From: Candidatus Competibacteraceae bacterium
GTDB lineage: Bacteria; Pseudomonadota; Gammaproteobacteria; Competibacterales; Competibacteraceae
Length of the DNA stretch: 64,000 nt
Assembly: GCA_046347555.1 (NCBI GenBank)
Contig: JAXMFY010000008.1
Location: 60,022-124,021, forward strand
Direction of reading: 5' to 3'
Position 1 is the stretch's first letter; each line of letters opens with the position of its first letter. Positions 51,201 to 62,793 of the stretch are shown piece after piece. The notes beneath the pieces are model-generated. The model saw nothing but the letters and a program-made list of their open reading frames with translations. It made no database searches and was not told the DNA's origin. Both the position numbers and the translations under genes were made by a program.

Positions 51201-53075
51201 TTAAAAATACATCCGCAGCCCAATTTCGAATTCCTCGATTCCTTCCCAATGGCGCCAATCGATCCCGAGCGATATGTCCCGGTTCAACGCCCAATTCTGC
51301 CGCAACACCGCTCGCACCGCCGTACCAGTTTCGCCCAGTCGATAGTCCAGCCAGCTTGCGCTGGCCAACACCTTCCAGCCCGCCGCCGGTTGCAGCAGCG
51401 CCCCGGCGGACAGCGCCAGCCCAGCTCGATAACCGGCGGTGAATTGATCGCTGGCGTCAAACTCCAGCCCCGGCAACGCGAACCAGACCGTTCGCCACGG
51501 CCAGCCGGTTTCGGCCGCCAGCCCCAATCCACCGCCGAGATTGAAGGCCATGCAGGTTGGGCAATCCGGCTGGGGAACCGCTTCCCAGCCCGCGTGAATC
51601 CGCCAGGCCGGGCGTGGCGTCAAGGCGTCGACCGGTGGTAACGAGGTGATATCGAGCAGCGTCAACCGGTCCAGTTTCAATCCCCCGAGCGCCGGGTAAT
51701 AACGCATGGCGACGTGCAACAACTCGATCTGGGCATTGGGGGTGTAACCGGCGTCCGGCTCCAGCAGATCGTGGGTGCTGGCCCGGGCGTTCAACTCCAC
51801 GAACGTCGCCCCGTCCCGTTGTCCGATTCCGACGCCCATCCGCCGCGAGGCGTGGCCGACTTCCGGGCGAGTGGCGTAGGGTTCGACCGCGACCGGCGCG
51901 GCGGCGACCGGCAACCGGGTGCGGGTGGTCAACCATCGATGCGCGATGGCGTCGGGTGGCGCAACCGTCCCCGCTGGCTTGGCCTTGTCCGCGCGCCGAT
52001 GCTGGCGCTCGTCCAGGGCCAGTTCCAGCAACAGCGCCTGCCGTTCCGGGGTCAGCCGGACGAAATCGGGCGCGTCGATCACCGCTGGATCGTTGCGCAA
52101 CCGCCGCGCCAGCCGCCGTTCGTCCACGGTCAGCGCTTCGTAGCGGCGGTTGATGGTCGTGCCGCGCGCCGGACGGGCGGTCACCTCGCCGATCAGCCCC
52201 GGTTGTCGGGCCAGCAGCCGGATCGTGTCGGCCGGCAGGGTCCAAAGCAGGTATTCATCGCTCAGCCGCAACTCCGGGTCGGCGACTTCCAGCAGCGTCA
52301 ACAACTGCCAGGCGCAATTCTCCCGGAAAAAGTAGTAATCGAACTCGATGCCGCGCAGTTCCCAGACGTGTTCCAACAAGCGTTGCAACTGGCTCTCGGA
52401 CAAATTCAGCCGGTATTCCCAAAGATCGCGGCTTTCCAAATCACTGTAGGCGCGCACCAGCTTGTAATAGGGCTGGACATCGAACTTGCCCTTGAAGCCG
52501 CCAGCGATGCCATCTAGCGCATACATCAGCGGGTTACTGCCGGTATCGTCGGCGGCGTAGTTGATGGCGTAGGCCAACAGTCGGGTTTGGTCGGTCTGGC
52601 CGCGTTGATCCAGCCGCAGCAGGGTATGGCCGAACAGCGAGGCGGGATTGTTGAGATAGGCGGAGGCGAACACCAGCGTCGCCGCTTCGACGTTCAGTGT
52701 GCGGAACCATTGCTGGAACCGCGCGCAGTCCTGCGGTCGCAGGCGACGGTCGTCGAAGTTCAACTCACCTTTCAGCCAGCGGTAGCGGGCGATGAAGGCG
52801 CACTGGGCCGGCTGCGGGTCGCCGCCCACTTGATCGGCGCTGAAGAAGGCGCGCAGAGTCGCGGCGAGTTCGGCGCGCGGATCGGTTTTACCGGCCGGGG
52901 CGAGGAAAAAACGGGGATCGTCGGCGTCGCTGACCACTCCCTCGCCACCGACCAGGGGTCGGTAATGCAGCAGCGTTTGCCACTCGCGCCGCGCGGCCAG
53001 ATCGACCGCCTCGGCCCGGTCCAGCAGTTCGGCAAGATAGCGAGCGTCGGCGCGGGCGTCCGCCGCGCCGATCAA
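51201..53075 (-). CDS. Large secreted/outer-membrane hypothetical protein (DUF4105-like, uncertain), >624 aa
   Basis: C-terminal aromatic-rich region ending in ...IGLRMYF (beta-barrel-like terminus). A signal-peptide-like stretch PRLTGVLLLGLLIGAADA sits in-frame upstream of the first ATG with no canonical start codon. Confidence 0.45.
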   Translation of the reverse strand: MIGAADARADARYLAELLDRAEAVDLAARREWQTLLHYRPLVGGEGVVSDADDPRFFLAPAGKTDPRAELAATLRAFFSADQVGGDPQPAQCAFIARYRWLKGELNFDDRRLRPQDCARFQQWFRTLNVEAATLVFASAYLNNPASLFGHTLLRLDQRGQTDQTRLLAYAINYAADDTGSNPLMYALDGIAGGFKGKFDVQPYYKLVRAYSDLESRDLWEYRLNLSESQLQRLLEHVWELRGIEFDYYFFRENCAWQLLTLLEVADPELRLSDEYLLWTLPADTIRLLARQPGLIGEVTARPARGTTINRRYEALTVDERRLARRLRNDPAVIDAPDFVRLTPERQALLLELALDERQHRRADKAKPAGTVAPPDAIAHRWLTTRTRLPVAAAPVAVEPYATRPEVGHASRRMGVGIGQRDGATFVELNARASTHDLLEPDAGYTPNAQIELLHVAMRYYPALGGLKLDRLTLLDITSLPPVDALTPRPAWRIHAGWEAVPQPDCPTCMAFNLGGGLGLAAETGWPWRTVWFALPGLEFDASDQFTAGYRAGLALSAGALLQPAAGWKVLASASWLDYRLGETGTAVRAVLRQNWALNRDISLGIDWRHWEGIEEFEIGLRMYF

Positions 53076-53193
53076 CAGACCGAGCAGCAGGACGCCCGTC
53101 AGGCGTGGGAGAGGAACGATGGACGGTTCAGAGCCTATACGAAAATTAACACTATGAATTGCTTTGGAAAACCATCAAAGATTTCCCGACGGA

Positions 53194-53287
53194 TCCCCTC
53201 TCCCTTTGGGAGAGGGTTAGGGTGAGGGAACGAACCCATTGAAAATAAACCCTCACCCCCCGCCCCTCTCCCAAAGGACGAGGGGAG
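53194..53287. repeat. Composite intergenic inverted-repeat element (same family)
   Basis: CCCCTCTCCCTTTGGGAGAGGGTTAGGGTGAGGG ... CCCTCACCCCCCGCCCCTCTCCCAAAGGACGAGGGGAG. Confidence 0.55.
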
Positions 53288-53302
53288 TTTTGGTATAGGC
53301 TC

Positions 53303-53701
53303 TCAGTTCAAGGTCAGCCGCTGGCCAAACCGGGGATCGGCCCGCAGTTCTCGCTCCAGCGTCGTCAGCATTTCGGCGGCGGTGGTCTGGTCGGTCGGGA
53401 ACAGCACGGCGAACTTGTCCTGGGTGAAGGCGAAAAACGCCGGCTGGCGGCCGGGTTCGATGTTCAACAAGGTCGCCAGCGAACCAAGGTATTCGCCCTG
53501 GCCGGCCGCCATGTCGTTTCGCAGTCGCTCCAGATTGACCTTGGCGAACTCGGCGGTCTGCTGCTGGCGATTCATGAACGCGGCGCTGCTCGAACCGCCG
53601 GTGGTGGCGCTGGAGCCGGAACTGGGATCGGTGACCACGGTGCAGGCGCCGATTCCCAAGCCCAGTGCAGCGGTTAAGGCAACATTCAGCCATAATTTCA
53701 T
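53303..53701 (-). CDS. DUF3015-like lipoprotein (132 aa)
   Basis: Signal peptide with lipobox LGIGAC, then a Ser/Gly-rich linker. Confidence 0.5.
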   Translation of the reverse strand: MKLWLNVALTAALGLGIGACTVVTDPSSGSSATTGGSSSAAFMNRQQQTAEFAKVNLERLRNDMAAGQGEYLGSLATLLNIEPGRQPAFFAFTQDKFAVLFPTDQTTAAEMLTTLERELRADPRFGQRLTLN

Positions 53702-53783
53702 AATTCACTCCTCATCAAGCGGCCCAACCTATTTGGGCGCGAATCAAGGTTCAAGGCCGAAGGTTATCAAGGTTACCACTCTC

Positions 53784-54932
53784 ATGAAAAGCCACTTGTC
53801 GCTGATCCTGCTGTCCACCCTGCAATGCAACGCCGACTGCGAGTACTGCTTCGAGATCAAGACGGCTGATCGGCTGACGCTCGACCGTCTGGGCGAGATG
53901 ATCCGCAAGGTGCTGGATTACATGGTGGAAAAATCGTTGACCTCGCTGACCATCTACTGGCAGGGCGGCGAGGCGATGCTGTTGCCGCCAAGCTGGTACG
54001 AGCAGGCCAACGAATTGATCCAGCGCGAGGCCGAGGCGCGCGGCAAGGAGGTCTTCCACAGCCTGCAAAGCAACATGCTGGCCTATAGCCCCCGCTGGAA
54101 CAAGGTCGTGGCCGAAATGTTCGGCAACTCCATCGGCACCTCGCTGGACTATCCCAACCTGCACCGCAAATTGCTGGGGCAGACGCCGGACAGCTACAAC
54201 GAAATCTGGGCCCGGCGGGTACGGGAAGCGCGGGCGGCCGGCATCGAGGTGCAGGTCATCGCCGTCCCCAACCAGGCCACGCTGGAGATCGGCGCTGAAC
54301 GGTTTTACACCTACTTCGCGGAGGAACTTGGCATCACCGAGTTTCAGGTCAACACCCCTTTTCCGGGGGGCGAGGCGACCGCCGCCAAGCAGGAATTGCC
54401 GGTGGCGGAAGTGGAAAAACTCAGCCGCTTCTACGCCGATCTGGCCGAGGTTTGGCTGGAGCGCGGCCATGGCCACGGGGTGCGGGTCGGCCCCTTCGAC
54501 GCCCTGCTCCGGCATTTCAGCCACGAGCCGACCACCCTGCCCTGCATCTGGGGCGATAACTGCGCCAGCGCCCTGGTTTCAATCGACGCCCGAGGTTACG
54601 TGGCCCAGTGCGATTGCTGGGTCACCAGCTACCCCGATTACCACTACGGCAACATCTTCGAGTGCGACAGCCTCGGGGACTTGCTGAAAAACAGCCCGGC
54701 GCGGAAAAAGTTCAACGAGCGACCCATTCAGCTCATCCAGCGCGACTGCCTGAGTTGCGACTATCTGTCGCTATGCCATGGCGGCTGTCCAGTGCGGACC
54801 TATACTGTGCACGGCACGCTGTTCGAGAAAGACCCCAATTGTGAACTTTACAAGACCGTGTTTGGACGGATGGAGCGGGCAGCGCGGGAACTGGCGCGCG
54901 CGGCGGTCACGGCGCGCGGCTTGGCCGCCTGA
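53784..54932 (+). CDS. Radical SAM / SPASM-domain peptide-modifying enzyme (383 aa)
   Basis: N-terminal CxxxCxxC (CNADCEYC) radical-SAM cluster motif. C-terminal Cys-rich SPASM region (CIWGDNC...CDCW...CLSCDYLSLCHGGCP). The listed 516-aa ORF is trimmed to Met MKSHL at 53784. Confidence 0.8.
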   Translation: MKSHLSLILLSTLQCNADCEYCFEIKTADRLTLDRLGEMIRKVLDYMVEKSLTSLTIYWQGGEAMLLPPSWYEQANELIQREAEARGKEVFHSLQSNMLAYSPRWNKVVAEMFGNSIGTSLDYPNLHRKLLGQTPDSYNEIWARRVREARAAGIEVQVIAVPNQATLEIGAERFYTYFAEELGITEFQVNTPFPGGEATAAKQELPVAEVEKLSRFYADLAEVWLERGHGHGVRVGPFDALLRHFSHEPTTLPCIWGDNCASALVSIDARGYVAQCDCWVTSYPDYHYGNIFECDSLGDLLKNSPARKKFNERPIQLIQRDCLSCDYLSLCHGGCPVRTYTVHGTLFEKDPNCELYKTVFGRMERAARELARAAVTARGLAA

Positions 54933-55082
54933 GTAACCCCGACCGCCCGGTCTTCCGAAAATATTCCACGTGGAATAAAACGCCAGGATGAGGACTGTCA
55001 GTCCGCGGCCCCGAAATATGTGCGAATGGCCACGTGACCTGTTCCTGGATCGATCCAGAGATGAAAGTAGCGGAGAATCGAA

Positions 55083-55604
55083 ATGACAGACCAAGATAGC
55101 GAACAGCTCCATGACATGACGCCCGGCCCCCTTGAAGAGGAATCAACCCAGGAAGAGCGCCGAGAGTTTCTACGTAGCCTGGGCAAGTGGTCGCAGGCGG
55201 TGATCGGTGGGGTGGTGGTGGGTGGCGCCCTGACCACGCCCAACCCCGCCGAGGCATGGTACAACGGGGGGGGTGGCATGGTTGTCCCCCCTGGAGAGCG
55301 TGATTGGTACTATCGAGGTGGCGGCTGGGGCAACCGGGGTGGTGGTTGGGTCAACCGGGGCGGCAGTTGGGGCAACCGGGGTGGTGGTTGGGTCAACCGG
55401 GGCGGTGGTTGGGTCAACCGGGGTGGTGGTTGGGCCAACCGGGGCGGCGGGTGGTACAACCGGGGTGGCTGGGGTAACCGGGGTGGCGGGTGGTATAACC
55501 GGGGTGGCTGGGGTAACCGGGGTGGCGGGTGGTATAACCGGGGCGGTGGTTGGCATAACCACGGCGGCGGGTGGTGGAACCGGGGTGGCTGGGGTAACAA
55601 ATAA
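55083..55604 (+). CDS. Tat-signal precursor peptide with ~15 tandem G-G-G-W-x-N-(R/H/K)-G-G repeats. Candidate RiPP substrate of the adjacent rSAM/SPASM enzyme.
   Basis: Twin-arginine motif ERREFLRSLG with hydrophobic segment and AEA cleavage site. The rest is almost pure W-x-N-R plus Gly. The 27-bp DNA unit repeats tandemly, producing mirror ORFs on all other frames. Confidence 0.65.
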   Translation: MTDQDSEQLHDMTPGPLEEESTQEERREFLRSLGKWSQAVIGGVVVGGALTTPNPAEAWYNGGGGMVVPPGERDWYYRGGGWGNRGGGWVNRGGSWGNRGGGWVNRGGGWVNRGGGWANRGGGWYNRGGWGNRGGGWYNRGGWGNRGGGWYNRGGGWHNHGGGWWNRGGWGNK

Positions 55605-55765
55605 GCAAAGCCAGGGCTCCTTGACCGGGCGGGTTTCGCTCGGGCTTGTAAGAAAATTCAATCCTCCAAGTAAAAAGCCTCTCTCCCACGCGGGAGAGAG
55701 GCAAAGGGGTGGGAGTCATTTTCCCACCGACCTGCCATACCAGGGTATGGCAGGACCATCAACGC

Positions 55766-56914
55766 TCAATGCGCCGGCAGGTCGATGCGCACCGTGTCGC
55801 GCAGCACGCCATCCAGGCCGCCGAACACGGTCAGCCGCTCGACCTTATCCACCACCTTCTCCAGCGCCTCCAGTTCCTTGAGCCGCAGCAGCAGGGGGTT
55901 CTCTTCCATGAGCTTCGCCGTGTTGAGCAGCGAGCGGGTGGCGGCGGTTTCCTCCCGCCGACGGATGACGTTGGCCTGTGCCACCTTTTCCGCCTGCACC
56001 ACCTGGTTGAGAATGTCCTTCATCTCGCCCGGCAGGATCACGTCCTTCAAACCGACCGTTTCCACCTCCAGTCCGTGCGGGCGAACCTTCTCGACCGCGT
56101 AATCCCACACCGCCCGATCCAGTTCGTCCTTGTCGCCGAGCAGCACGTCCAGCGTGCGGGTGCCGATGGTCTGGCGCAGACCGAACTGCAAGGTCCGGTA
56201 CAGGTAGTCGCCGCTGTTGCCCAGTTCGGCGCGAGCCTTCACCGGATCGGTGATCCGGTAGACCGCCGACAGATTCACCCGCAGGCTGACCTTGTCCTTG
56301 GTCAGGATTTCCTGGCCGGAAACCTCCAAGGTCTGCAAGCGCAAGTCCACCGACTCTACCTTGACCGCACGGTTGAACCGCCAGAAAGCGTGCAGGCCAG
56401 GCGGCAGGGTGCGCGCCAATTCGCCGTCCACCAGCAACAGGCCGACATGGTTATCTTCCACCTCGGCGACTTGAATGAAGCCGGCCAGATTCTTGGCCAA
56501 GGCCGCCGACGGCCGCGCCAGCAGAGCCGCGTGCGCCCGCGACAGGGCGTAATCGGTGGCGATGTCGATCAACTCGACCCGCACCTCCACCGGACCCCGC
56601 CAGTAGACCCGACGGGTCGCGGGCGGCAACACGCCATCCAGACGACCGTTCTTGTGGATCAGGCCAACTTGCCGGTCGCCGGTCTCGACCACCTGAAAAT
56701 GGCGCTCGATCAGTCCCGCGTCGGCCTTCAACAGCACGTCCAGCCAGGGGTGATCGAACTCGGCCACGGTCAGGTCGTAACGCTGCACCTCGTGGCGGTT
56801 CAGGGGATCGAGCCAACGGTAAATACCCGGTTCCAGAATGGCCGCCAAACGGCGGTCGTACAGGTGGAGCCCACGCTCGTTCTGGGCGATCACGATTCGC
56901 TTGTAACCCAACAT
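55766..56914 (-). CDS. SPFH/band-7 (stomatin/flotillin-like) domain protein
   Basis: GGAGA RBS before MLGYKR. SPFH core plus a C-terminal coiled coil. Confidence 0.7.
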   Translation of the reverse strand: MLGYKRIVIAQNERGLHLYDRRLAAILEPGIYRWLDPLNRHEVQRYDLTVAEFDHPWLDVLLKADAGLIERHFQVVETGDRQVGLIHKNGRLDGVLPPATRRVYWRGPVEVRVELIDIATDYALSRAHAALLARPSAALAKNLAGFIQVAEVEDNHVGLLLVDGELARTLPPGLHAFWRFNRAVKVESVDLRLQTLEVSGQEILTKDKVSLRVNLSAVYRITDPVKARAELGNSGDYLYRTLQFGLRQTIGTRTLDVLLGDKDELDRAVWDYAVEKVRPHGLEVETVGLKDVILPGEMKDILNQVVQAEKVAQANVIRRREETAATRSLLNTAKLMEENPLLLRLKELEALEKVVDKVERLTVFGGLDGVLRDTVRIDLPAH

Positions 56915-57360
56915 CTTGGTTCTCCTTGTGAAGTTGTTTGCAGTCTTCCTGTTCCGCCGCAATTCGGCGGGCGAGCGTGGCGTGTTGCTGGTCGGCGCCG
57001 TTTCCGGCCCGCCACCGCCGAGCGTCAGGATGTCATCGAGACCTGCTCCTGCCGGTTGGTTGATGAAAGGGTTGAATGGGTTGGGAGCGCACCCCACGCC
57101 CGCGCAGCGGACGACGGGTTGAGGCCGGATCGATGACCAGCGGGCCGCGCGCGGCGGCCGGCATCCTTGCCGACCAACACCGCGCGCGGCTGGCCGATCA
57201 TGACTTCAGCCCGATTCCCCGCCGTGCGAAACCGCGCGGGCGTTGCGGGTCGGGTCACGACGATGCCGAAACATCGCCATGGCTATCGCCCGCCGGGGTG
57301 GCTCCCTGGGGTACTGCACTTAGAGCGGAGTCGAACCGCAGGCCTGTTAGGGCCTTACCA

Positions 57361-57436
57361 TGGTGGAAAAGGAGGGAGTTGAACCCTCGACCGTCTGATG
57401 ATGAGTCAGATGCTCTACCCATTGAGCTACTTTTCA
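57361..57436 (-). tRNA. tRNA-Met (anticodon CAT)-like gene, 76 nt with encoded CCA. Position 1:72 is a U-C mismatch.
   Basis: Minus strand: TGAAAAG-TA-GCTC-AATGGGTA-GAGC-A-TCTGA-CTCATCA-TCAGA-CGGTC-GAGGG-TTCAACT-CCCTC-CTTTTCC-A-CCA. Clean cloverleaf except the first acceptor pair. Confidence 0.5.
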
Positions 57437-57590
57437 GGCTCCAAAGACCTCTCATCCGCCCGATACACGCCGTGCGATGGTTAGCATTGGCGCGTCAGTC
57501 CGGTATCCAGAACCGGAACCGCTGTGCGGTGACAGGGTTACTTCGGATCGTGCCGACGGGGATTTGCAAATCTTTCCGCCGGACGCCAGA

Positions 57591-57627
57591 CCACAAAAAA
57601 CCCCGGAAGGCTCACCGCCGACCGGGG
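57591..57627 (-). terminator. Rho-independent terminator downstream of the hybrid kinase gene
   Basis: Minus strand CCCCGG-(15-nt loop)-CCGGGG followed by TTTTTTTG. Confidence 0.45.
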
Positions 57628-57882
57628 TTCGGTATTCCCGCTCGGAAGGTCGCCTCGCGCGGACCTTCCAAGCCTGTATGCTCGTCAGGTCCGCATCGAA
57701 TCCATCGTGGGCGCGCAGGGGCGCGCTGCCGGCGCAAGCCGGTCGACAATGGATGAAAGGTTGAATGTATGCTGGTTTCTATTCATGGGGCGCGCAGTAT
57801 AAACCGGAAAAAGAGCGAGTCAACCCTTGTTTCAAAGGATGTACAAAAATGCCCCCAAGAACGCCCAGCCCTGGGCAATTGC

Positions 57883-62793
<4,911 letters not shown>

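Follow-up and report, generated by a model that had tools for sequence, protein, structure and literature searches.

A Radical-SAM/SPASM Enzyme Gene Precedes a Gene for a W-x-N Repeat Protein

The stretch of DNA analysed here (referred to as the window) belongs to a Candidatus Contendobacter genome, is 64 kb long and contains two neighbouring genes of interest on the plus strand. The first gene (53784..54932, +) codes for a predicted radical-SAM/SPASM peptide maturase of 382 amino acids without an N-terminal RRE extension, according to the ORF call and a PF04055 match. The enzyme starts with MKSHLSLILLSTLQCNADCEYC, and its homologues share the start Met and the length. The CxxxCxxC radical-SAM cluster motif (C15-N-A-D-C19-E-Y-C22, residues 15-22) is encoded at 53826..53849 (+). 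The SPASM auxiliary Fe-S domain (residues 263-353, with CxxCx5CxxxC at C322-C335), defined by TIGR04085 and the invariant cysteines, is encoded at 54570..54842 (+). A spacer of 150 nt (54933..55082, +) with a Shine-Dalgarno sequence GGAG at 55073-55076 separates this gene from an ORF of 173 amino acids (55083..55604, +, stop codon included), which encodes the putative precursor. The precursor consists of a signal or leader (residues 1-58; 55083..55256, +), described below on the basis of the leader logo, the TIGR01409 score, AF2 and a codon comparison, and a predicted mature core of 115 amino acids (55257..55601, +), in which 15 W-x-N motifs are arranged in G-G-G-W-x-N-R units. Tandem Repeats Finder reports a tandem DNA repeat array at 55317..55588 (+), with a 21-nt unit present 13 times and a 42-nt super-unit present 6.5 times. 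A preliminary description of this DNA had listed a CNADCEYC enzyme with a Cys-rich SPASM tail, a 173 amino acid ORF behind it and about 15 tandem W-x-N repeats therein; all of this is found here, except that the enzyme had been given as 383 amino acids long.

Two other long ORFs overlap the repeats, at 55273-55881 (+) and 55170-55661 (−). We regard them as frame shadows produced by the GC-rich repeat and discarded them, because a conserved leader and divergence dominated by synonymous changes are found only in the W-x-N frame. In a block of 24 leader codons, 9-10 codons differ from those of the closest relatives, all of them synonymously, and over 27 loci this block shows 296 synonymous versus 72 non-synonymous differences. 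Thus, the precursor reading frame is real and its leader is under purifying selection.

The promoter and terminator scan predicted no terminator in the enzyme-precursor spacer and no sigma-70 consensus site in 53200-56000. In an Rfam search over 53000-58000 only a tRNA-Met passed, and the spacer contains no riboswitch according to this search. A GC-rich hairpin with a T-run on the minus strand (55677..55702, strand unassigned), seen in the sequence and the terminator scan, is located where the precursor and SPFH genes converge and is a possible bidirectional terminator. The neighbours of the gene pair code for a DUF3015 protein, an Lnb-like protein, the SPFH protein, tRNA-Met and a CheR-PAS histidine kinase. 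A second CxxxCxxC ORF or a second precursor is not present within the 64-kb window. PADLOC was run on the enzyme, the precursor, the window neighbours and the partner proteins X and Y of relatives (see below), and its sole match was a generic viperin-fold one on the enzyme; there is therefore no evidence for a known defence system.

The Enzyme Scores Below All Curated Family Cutoffs

In an alignment with 15 homologues, reaching down to 61% identity, the radical-SAM cysteines C15, C19 and C22 are invariant, as are the SPASM cysteines C254, C260, C276, C278, C322, C325, C331, C335 and C353, which make up a complete set. The SPASM model TIGR04085 matches the enzyme with 50 bits (cutoff 27). Altogether, 1078 enzyme homologues were found, the top ones belonging to Ca. 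Contendobacter/Competibacter.

In the HMM scan the enzyme stayed under every curated NCBIfam cutoff. The best single HMM is that for anSME (TIGR03942), with a score of 136 against a cutoff of 349.45 (39%). Among its best relatives below threshold are several crosslinking maturases, namely DynA (NF041298, 127.5 vs. cutoff 450), DarW (NF041300, 119.5 vs. 650), DarE (NF038005, 96.5 vs. 650), GrrM/OscB (TIGR04261, 94 vs. 310) and AmcB (68 vs. 425). The models for HxsB (TIGR03978, 53.3 vs. 370), YhhB (36.5 vs. 445) and FxsB (33.5 vs. 370) scored lower, and a relative from clade B (locus L052, see below) reached 41.8 with the XyeB model (cutoff 450). None of the curated 3-CyFE family models (GrrM/OscB, XyeB, FxsB, YhhB, AmcB) was thus passed, XyeB having been scored on L052. 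The closest solved structures by sequence are anSME (4k36, E=1.7e-17) and ChlB (9gm3, E=7.6e-4). As far as sequence models tell, the enzyme clade is outside all curated models and characterised subfamilies.

Identity as an anSME was considered and rejected, on the basis of the score (136 vs. 349.45) and because no ORF in the window carries a sulfatase signature. The preliminary description had named closest homology to anSMEs together with a nearby sulfatase as an argument against a peptide-modifying pair. The first part holds to the extent that the best HMM is an anSME model, at 39% of its cutoff; the second does not, since the 64-kb window contains no sulfatase motif.

The Precursor Starts With a Leader of the Twin-Arginine Type

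The signal of the precursor, ERREFLRSLGKWS, is of the twin-arginine type, lies behind an acidic N-terminus and is followed by an AEA cleavage site. E-R26-R27-E-F-L-R is followed by LGKWSQAVIGGVVVGGALTT and then by PNPAEA, which abuts W59. The leader can be divided into an acidic n-region (residues 1-25), the conserved LGKWS with a Gly-rich h-region (33-53) and PNPAEA (53-58). In the leader logo (n=120 sequences) the two arginines, the F, the L at +4, the L at +7 and the W-S at +10/+11 are invariant; the median net charge of the n-region is −6 in these sequences, and in 114 of the 120 a small-x-small site is located 0-3 residues ahead of the first core Trp. This agrees with the twin-arginine signal and AEA site proposed in the preliminary description. 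Leaders of clade B contain the canonical S-R-R-D-F-L, the window precursor contains E-R-R-E-F-L-R. In some relatives a lipobox L-T-G-C substitutes for AxA, an exchange that would be expected of a genuine export signal.

The window leader combines an S/T-R-R-x-F-L-K-type motif, an uncharged h-region and an AxA site. Compared with a Tat signal it is odd in having a Lys eight residues past the twin arginine and an unusually long and acidic n-region. The Tat signal model TIGR01409 gives the window precursor 14.8 (cutoff 16.7), and 23 of 45 relatives match below the threshold, the best with 16.2 vs. 16.7, so that none passes; PF10518 is essentially silent on the precursors. Conservation of the h-region is far above that of ordinary signal peptides, and for this reason the segment may be mainly an enzyme-recognition leader. 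AF2, run on the precursor with 45 relatives, predicts a leader helix at residues 16-50 with a pLDDT of up to 90.

The Core Is Built From W-x-N Motifs

All 15 Asn and 15 of the 17 Trp residues of the window core are located in W-x-N motifs. In 100,000 shuffles of the core this number was never reached, the maximum being eight. The core is 42% Gly and contains 14 Arg and no Cys, which excludes thioether chemistry for the window core; the cores of 147 relatives contain 48 Cys in total. With the 45 relatives in the input, AF2 assigned the core a pLDDT of approximately 40, suggesting that it has no autonomous fold, and a self-folding solenoid core gains no support from this prediction.

Across the family, 950 of 1177 Trp residues lie within W-x-N and 121 more are the Trp of the leader KWS. 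The profile search found N at W+2 871 times and D 27 times. The middle residue of the motif is variable (V/I/Y/A/H/G), while Trp and Asn are near-invariant; the residue after Asn is Arg in 74% of the motifs and Gly in 16%.

No Pfam or NCBIfam family passes its cutoff on the precursor. The window precursor does not match the GrrA/OscA1 model TIGR04260 even at E<=10. Among the relatives, 22 of 45 match this model sub-threshold (best 23.3, cutoff 31), and their matches cover profile positions 63-117 only, which is the repeat half. The window core matches AmcA weakly. The precursor has 619 homologues, all annotated as "hypothetical", and a search of 1.84 billion representatives yielded a family of 287 clusters at 50% identity. 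Its hosts are wastewater Competibacteraceae and Accumulibacter, purple sulfur bacteria and soil Acidobacteria.

Enzyme and Precursor Genes Are Linked in Relatives

We compared 80 loci from Competibacteraceae, Chromatiaceae, Accumulibacter, Methylococcaceae and Acidobacteria, in which R denotes the radical-SAM enzyme, P the precursor, X a degenerate radical-SAM-fold partner and Y a SnoaL-like partner. In 60 of them the enzyme is linked to the W-x-N precursor family, in two gene orders. Clade B (Chromatiaceae, Accumulibacter, Methylococcaceae and Acidobacteria, with enzymes 56-66% identical) has (Y)-P-X-R in all 36 loci with enough flank, and clade A (Competibacteraceae) has R-P or R-Y-P in 24 of the 36 loci with enough downstream flank. 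Since the pair is kept in both orders and in both clades, the linkage survives rearrangement across three phyla, and judged by these genomes the pairing is not due to chance. It is not obligate, since 12 clade-A loci encode the enzyme without an adjacent precursor and orphan Y-P pairs occur.

Most relatives also encode X, which has four invariant Cys, and Y, an exported SnoaL-like protein with a signal peptide. Both are absent from the window (tblastn), and the two-gene version found here could be incomplete or reliant on genes elsewhere in the genome. No transporter or protease gene adjoins the enzyme-precursor pair in the window, as had been pointed out before, and none is conserved in any of the compared loci. 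The proposal in the preliminary description that a maturase next to a precursor with aromatic-x-Asn repeats fits the triceptide architecture thus has strong comparative-genomic support.

Proposed Mechanism and Alternatives

On balance, we favour the view that the two genes together yield a ribosomal peptide or small protein that would be modified post-translationally by crosslinking and then exported by Tat. Modification of the W-x-N precursor by the enzyme is likely, considering the conserved linkage. In the cytoplasm, the radical-SAM/SPASM enzyme would act on the unfolded Gly-rich core. At each of the 15 W-x-N sites it would abstract the Asn Cβ hydrogen and bond this carbon to the indole of the Trp that stands two positions before the Asn, so that every crosslink would close a three-residue cyclophane and lower the mass by 2 Da. 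A Trp-Asn C-C crosslink of this kind is the probable modification: the variation pattern of W-x-N and the tolerance for Asn/Asp match the i/i+2 crosslink geometry of OscB/XncB (PMC11002830). The N-terminal segment would be a twin-arginine signal peptide and probably also the recognition leader of the enzyme. The Tat translocase would carry out the crosslinked, rigid product, and signal peptidase I would cleave after A-E-A58, so that a poly-cyclophane of 115 residues, strongly cationic and rich in Trp, Arg and Gly, would be set free in the periplasm or cell envelope. General machinery would do both jobs, making a dedicated protease and exporter unnecessary. Export by a general pathway is highly likely, and Tat is probably the pathway used.

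The same enzyme-substrate pair might use another chemistry, for example a crosslink of the ether or C-N type, a link from Trp to Arg (i+3) or a modification of Asn or Trp that forms no crosslink. The enzyme falls in no characterised subfamily and its nearest sub-threshold HMMs include DarE/DarW (ether and C-C) and DynA, whose product has a Trp(i)-Asn(i+3) C-C and a His-Tyr C-N link (review PMC11002830); the frequent Arg after Asn points in the same direction. Such chemistry is nevertheless unlikely, since the invariant partner is the Asn at i+2 and the Asn/Asp interchange fits OscB-type Cβ crosslinking, and a Trp-Arg link is further opposed by the Gly, which lacks a Cβ, at i+3 in 16% of the motifs. 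We consider it very improbable that the W-x-N protein is an unmodified exported structural protein, for example a solenoid, and that the enzyme serves a different substrate, for example in the manner of an anSME. The lack of a predicted fold in the core and an enzyme-precursor linkage that outlasts changes of gene order across phyla argue against it, although anSME ranks first among both the HMMs and the PDB sequence matches and the enzyme gene occurs in some genomes with no precursor gene next to it. The anSME score is far below the cutoff (136 vs. 349) and the Cys/Ser-x-Pro/Ala-x-Arg sulfatase motif is absent from every ORF of the window. An alkyl-sulfatase gene does adjoin the enzyme gene in the relative L052, but this sulfatase is of the metallo-beta-lactamase type, does not use formylglycine and is not conserved across the loci.

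It is also rather unlikely that the leader is not a Tat signal and is instead a Sec signal, a membrane anchor or a pure RiPP leader with a coincidental RR-x-F-L, any export then being achieved by unlinked machinery. In three phyla the twin Arg is invariant and its spacing to F-L constant; it precedes a Gly-rich h-region of only moderate hydrophobicity, and an AxA site or lipobox lies immediately ahead of the first motif. A rigid, crosslinked cargo moreover suits Tat and not Sec. What speaks for a non-Tat leader are the TIGR01409 scores, all of them sub-threshold, the near silence of PF10518 and the unusually conserved h-region LGKWSQAVIGG, which suggests protein binding. In addition, bufferins, the sole general-export RiPPs found in the literature searched, use Sec (PMC12452194).

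Starting from the crosslinked, Tat-exported product, we tentatively put forward a broader reading that we regard as possible. The locus might represent the first natural RiPP-like system in which a twin-arginine leader doubles as recognition handle for a cyclophane synthase and as Tat ticket for an already crosslinked product, with general Tat and signal-peptidase machinery taking the place of a protease and transporter dedicated to it. The product would be a polycation of 115 residues with approximately 15 cyclophane rings acting in the periplasm or envelope, for instance as a barrier that, in analogy to HxsA, binds polyanions or DNA, and the family would be a previously unnamed one, most members of which have a catalytically dead radical-SAM paralogue as partner. 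A polyanion- or envelope-binding, perhaps protective, role in the periplasm is speculation. Full-text searches that linked Tat or export signals to RiPPs, cyclophanes or radical-SAM enzymes turned up no naturally occurring RiPP behind a twin-arginine leader.

The system is unusual in that a general export route seems to stand in for a dedicated protease and transporter. If Tat does carry a multiply crosslinked peptide, two genes would be a simple way of bringing cyclophane-stapled polypeptides into the periplasm, and the system would be a natural test of the limits of Tat proofreading. The enzyme clade, located beyond all curated models, would extend the triceptide sequence space, and the recurring degenerate radical-SAM-fold partner bears on the evolution of leader recognition in RRE-less maturases. 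Competibacter and Accumulibacter, two of the hosts, are of key importance where phosphorus is removed from wastewater.

Comparison With Known Systems

Like triceptide systems, the locus combines a CxxxCxxC and SPASM enzyme with a co-encoded precursor that contains conserved aromatic-X-X motifs. OscB forms three-residue cyclophanes between Trp C7 and the Cβ of Asn/Asp, and XncB links Trp C6 to the Cβ of Arg/Asn (PMC11002830). With GRRM (OscA-OscB) the window shares an RRE-less radical-SAM/SPASM maturase and a precursor with a Gly-rich Trp-x-Asn repeat as its C-terminal half, and TIGR04260 gives weak alignments with relatives' cores over its repeat half. The GRRM-type assignment made in the preliminary description could not be upheld, since the enzyme reaches 94 of 310, the window precursor does not match GrrA/OscA1 and the relatives reach at most 23.3 of 31. 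The leader is unrelated and here of the twin-arginine type, the motifs are Arg-rich, the hosts are Gammaproteobacteria, Betaproteobacteria and Acidobacteria, and most relatives add the pseudo-radical-SAM and SnoaL-like partners.

XncB/XyeB, ChlB, YhhB, AmcB, DynA and DarE/DarW belong to the same anSME-like SPASM fold class as the window enzyme and carry out aromatic-to-Cβ crosslinking on short motifs, as proposed here, although the HMM scores of the window enzyme are far below their cutoffs. Each of their precursors is short and has a classical leader and one or a few motifs, and processing and export are usually provided for within the gene cluster itself. anSME (TIGR03942, 4k36) is closest by HMM and PDB sequence. 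The substrates of anSME/AtsB carry an export signal and are modified before export, and the precursor described here would do likewise. In contrast to anSME, the conserved partner is a W-x-N repeat protein, and the window has neither a sulfatase nor a C/S-x-P/A-x-R motif.

Bufferins and oxazolins are Sec-signal RiPPs, the products of which act in the periplasm, an arrangement termed highly unusual for RiPPs (PMC12452194; PMC11626156). The window precursor resembles them in having a general-export signal peptide in place of a classical leader; they differ in their MNIO/DUF692 enzyme, Cys-derived modification and use of Sec, where the window has a radical-SAM enzyme and a twin-arginine-type signal. 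In the HXS antiphage system (HxsA/B/C/D), a basic protein of short-period repeats is matured by radical-SAM/SPASM enzymes; it carries a signal peptide, and its site of action is the periplasm (PMC13128918). A radical-SAM/SPASM enzyme and a basic short-period repeat protein with a predicted signal are likewise encoded here, whereas HXS has His-x-Ser repeats, four genes and a peptidoglycan-binding domain, and the window enzyme scores 53.3 of 370 with HxsB. Altogether, set apart by the curated HMM cutoffs, the gene pair looks like a previously undescribed relative of the triceptide systems and not like a member of GRRM.

A radical-SAM/SPASM enzyme outside the named maturase families

The window originates from a Candidatus Contendobacter (Competibacteraceae) genome, and its radical-SAM/SPASM enzyme is 95-97% identical to those of four Contendobacter MAGs. 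The enzyme ORF (53784-54932, + strand; N-terminus MKSHLSLILLSTLQCNADCEYC) and the precursor ORF are both present as the preliminary description reported, except that the enzyme has 382 and not 383 amino acids. The radical-SAM motif CxxxCxxC comprises residues 15-22, and the C-terminal SPASM cysteine set is complete and invariant across 15 homologues (lowest identity 61%). The SPASM domain model TIGR04085 is the only NCBIfam model passed (50 bits, cutoff 27). All matches to named maturase family models in NCBIfam are far below the curated cutoffs (score/cutoff in bits): anSME 136/349, DynA 127.5/450, DarW 119.5/650, TIGR04083 98.7/300, DarE 96.5/650, GrrM/OscB 94/310, AmcB 68/425, YhhB 36.5/445 and FxsB 33.5/370. 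By sequence, the enzyme matches the solved structure of anSME (E=1.7e-17) and has a weak match to that of the triceptide synthase ChlB. Together, the sub-cutoff scores and the structure matches place the enzyme in an unnamed clade within the anSME-like SPASM group, the group that holds the cyclophane synthases.

The precursor and its W-x-N core

A 150 nt spacer with a GGAG ribosome-binding site (55073-55076) separates the enzyme from the precursor ORF (55083-55604, + strand; 173 aa). The precursor consists of an acidic n-region (residues 1-25), the signal segment E-R26-R27-E-F-L-R-S-L-G-K-W-S, a Gly-rich uncharged stretch, P-N-P-A-E-A58 and a core of 115 residues from W59 onward, in which 15 W-x-N motifs lie within G-G-G-W-x-N-R units. 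These motifs take in all 15 core Asn and 15 of the 17 core Trp; when the core was shuffled 100,000 times, 15 motifs were never attained (maximum 8), which bears out the reported array of about 15 tandem repeats behind a twin-arginine-type N-terminus. The repeat DNA is a tandem array of 13 copies of a 21-nt unit. The predicted mature peptide contains 14 Arg, 17 Trp and 42% Gly; it has no Cys, which is rare in the cores of relatives as well.

Compared with the window, the closest relatives have 9-10 changed codons in the leader block (24 codons), every change being synonymous; over 27 loci, 296 codon differences are synonymous and 72 non-synonymous. Since the divergence is mostly synonymous, the W-x-N frame is the translated one, and long ORFs in other frames across the repeat were rejected as shadows. 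At 55313-55349, 55376-55412 and 55538-55574 the Rfam family of the prion-protein pseudoknot matches below threshold (28.7 bits, gathering score 39). The DNA encoding GGGWGN resembles that for the PrP octarepeat PHGGGWGQ, and this likeness probably reflects mere convergent repeat composition.

A word-indexed search identified 619 precursor homologues, every one annotated 'hypothetical', and when 1.84 billion representatives were searched exhaustively with a precursor profile, 287 clusters were obtained at E<=0.001. No family model matched the window precursor at a useful threshold; its only model matches are AmcA, a multiple-cyclophane RiPP (15 bits, cutoff 40), and the Tat signal model (14.8 bits, cutoff 16.7). 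The GrrA/OscA1 model TIGR04260 did not match it and was touched by 22 of 45 relatives, with the repeat half of the profile only (best 23.3, cutoff 31). The core resembles that of cyanobacterial GRRM precursors, whereas the leader differs. Judged by these scores and that of GrrM/OscB, the system is not a GRRM member, and the GRRM-type assignment proposed earlier was not upheld.

The enzyme-precursor pair is conserved in two clades

A scan of species-representative genomes yielded 244 enzyme relatives, and the 80 loci examined fall into two clades. Clade A (Competibacteraceae; enzyme identity 80-97%) has the order enzyme-precursor in 14 loci, enzyme, exported SnoaL-like partner and one to three precursors in 10, and the enzyme alone in 17, 12 of which extend 3 kb or more downstream. 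Clade B (Chromatiaceae, Accumulibacter, Methylococcaceae, Pyrinomonadaceae/Blastocatellia and a few Competibacteraceae; identity 56-66%) shows the order precursor, degenerate radical-SAM-fold partner, enzyme, with or without a leading SnoaL-like gene, in 36 of 39 loci; the remaining three are truncated upstream. Thus, the precursor stays beside the enzyme across three phyla despite the change in gene order. In some Contendobacter genomes a pair of SnoaL-like and precursor genes lies far from any enzyme gene, which together with the 12 clade-A enzyme loci lacking a precursor suggests that the components can work in trans.

The SnoaL-like partner (about 160-200 aa, SnoaL_3/NTF2-like domain) carries its own signal peptide and is read as exported; its gene directly precedes the precursor in most loci of clade B and in ten of clade A (for instance L043:3199-3690, L024:7418-7900 and L081:5379-5987 in relatives' loci). 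Both partners are absent from the 64-kb window and from the closest relatives (loci L001-L006), so the window has the system in its minimal form of two genes.

Two or three tandem precursor genes occur in several loci, among them L024:8003-9461, L031:7914-8571, L043:3726-5116 and L009:7974-8546, and differ in repeat flavour (W-I-N-R-R-G-G-Y or W-Y/H-N-R); L009 has a frameshift within the array, possibly an assembly error or a pseudogene. Motif number varies among close strains from 12 to 16 in complete genes, and some genes end at contig ends. The 295-aa predicted protein P0480 fuses a precursor-like W-x-N core directly to sequence like the degenerate partner, probably by gene-call read-through or a frameshift across adjoining genes.

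Divergent genes upstream of the maturase encode a DUF3015 lipoprotein-like protein (53303-53701, - strand) and a 624-aa Lnb_N/DUF7840/DUF7843 protein (51201-53075, - strand). Nearly every clade-A locus, with or without a precursor, has them in this place, and clade B lacks them; the arrangement may be mere synteny or may reflect a functional link. Between them, 53181-53292 gives weak hairpin-type Rfam matches on both strands (sX13, 27.9 bits, and miRNA-precursor families), suggesting that the stretch holds a long inverted repeat or is otherwise structured. On the other side lies an SPFH gene (55766-57097), with a tRNA-Met gene (57361-57436, - strand) and a 1636-aa hybrid sensor with CheR methyltransferase, multiple PAS, HisKA, HATPase and receiver domains (57883-62793, - strand) just downstream. 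In Thiorhodococcus minor (L052) two genes come after that of the maturase, one of the alkyl-sulfatase family (PF14863/PF14864, metallo-beta-lactamase type; L052:7168-9018) and one for a DUF3604 protein (L052:9417-11372). Neither is conserved in other loci, and neither encodes a formylglycine sulfatase.

Export signal

The conserved leader reads (S/E)-R-R-x-F-L-x-(S/G)-L-G-K-W-S-x-(A/V)-(V/I)-I-G-G, with R-R-x-F-L invariant and the canonical S-R-R-D-F-L in clade B. The uncharged stretch after it is Gly-rich and only moderately hydrophobic, and in 114 of 120 sequences a small-x-small site lies 0-3 residues ahead of the first W-x-N. These features speak for the twin-arginine-type signal claimed before. 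The curated Tat model is touched by 23 of 45 relatives (best 16.2 bits) and passed by neither these nor the window precursor. In some relatives the small-x-small site is replaced by a lipobox, with which export signals cut by signal peptidase II end; in P0395, P0432 and P0187, L-T-G-C or L-S-G-C replaces AxA just ahead of the first motif, which suggests that the repeat protein also exists in forms anchored by a lipid. None of the loci compared has a conserved gene for a protease or transporter. The lipobox, this lack and the signal peptide of the SnoaL-like partner likewise count in favour of a true export signal.

Proposed pathway and alternatives

Among 120 homologues, W-x-N motifs account for 950 of 1177 Trp, and another 121 are the Trp of the leader KWS. 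The position between Trp and Asn is variable (V, I, Y, A, H, G), and Asn is followed by Arg (74%) or Gly (16%). In the profile matches, a core Trp is followed two positions on by Asn in 871 cases and by Asp in 27. Invariant residues i and i+2 with a free middle are the signature expected if both side chains were joined. This pattern agrees with published triceptide chemistry: between residues i and i+2, OscB joins Trp C7 to Cβ of Asn or Asp and XncB joins Trp C6 to Cβ of Arg or Asn (PMC11002830; PMC11499958). We lean, with some reserve, to a joint reading in which a Trp-to-Asn-Cβ cyclophane would be formed at each W-x-N in the cytoplasm, the modified precursor exported by Tat and cut by signal peptidase after AEA58, leaving a cationic poly-cyclophane in the periplasm. 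Tat export would be mechanistically attractive, since radical-SAM chemistry depends on the SAM, reductant and Fe-S clusters of the cytoplasm, and the product, once crosslinked, would be rigid. That the same pair carries out another chemistry seems rather unlikely.

It is similarly doubtful that the N-terminal segment is a Sec signal, membrane anchor or pure RiPP leader. Such a reading draws on the sub-cutoff Tat scores, a Lys eight residues past RR, the long acidic n-region (median 21 residues, net charge -6) and an h-region conserved far beyond ordinary signal peptides; against it stand the invariant R-R-x-F-L and the cleavage site or lipobox ahead of the first motif. The h-region conservation most likely reflects a second constraint, recognition by the maturase. 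An unmodified structural protein beside an unrelated anSME-like enzyme is very improbable: AlphaFold2 with 45 relatives predicts a confident leader helix and leaves the core without a fold (pLDDT about 40), which argues against Trp and Asn being kept for a self-folding solenoid. The anSME resemblance had been named as grounds for doubt if a sulfatase lay nearby; the 64-kb window contains no sulfatase signature, second radical-SAM motif or other candidate substrate, the W-x-N protein is the conserved neighbour, and a role as anSME was rejected.

Comparison with known systems

In the recently described HXS system, a basic HxS-repeat protein bearing a signal peptide is matured by radical-SAM enzymes and, in the periplasm, keeps phage DNA from entering (PMC13128918). 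It offers, as a lead only, a precedent for a periplasmic protective role; PADLOC did not support a defence role. Full-text literature searches for Tat or other export signals in connection with RiPPs, cyclophanes or radical-SAM enzymes yielded no natural RiPP with a Tat leader. As triceptides and the GRRM architecture are already known, the W-x-N system is not categorically new, and published triceptide networks may already hold an unnamed cluster matching the enzyme clade. It is set apart by the enzyme clade outside all curated models, the so far unannotated precursor family, the twin-arginine-type signal in place of a classical leader, the lack of a dedicated processing or export gene and, in most members, the pseudo-radical-SAM and SnoaL-like partners.
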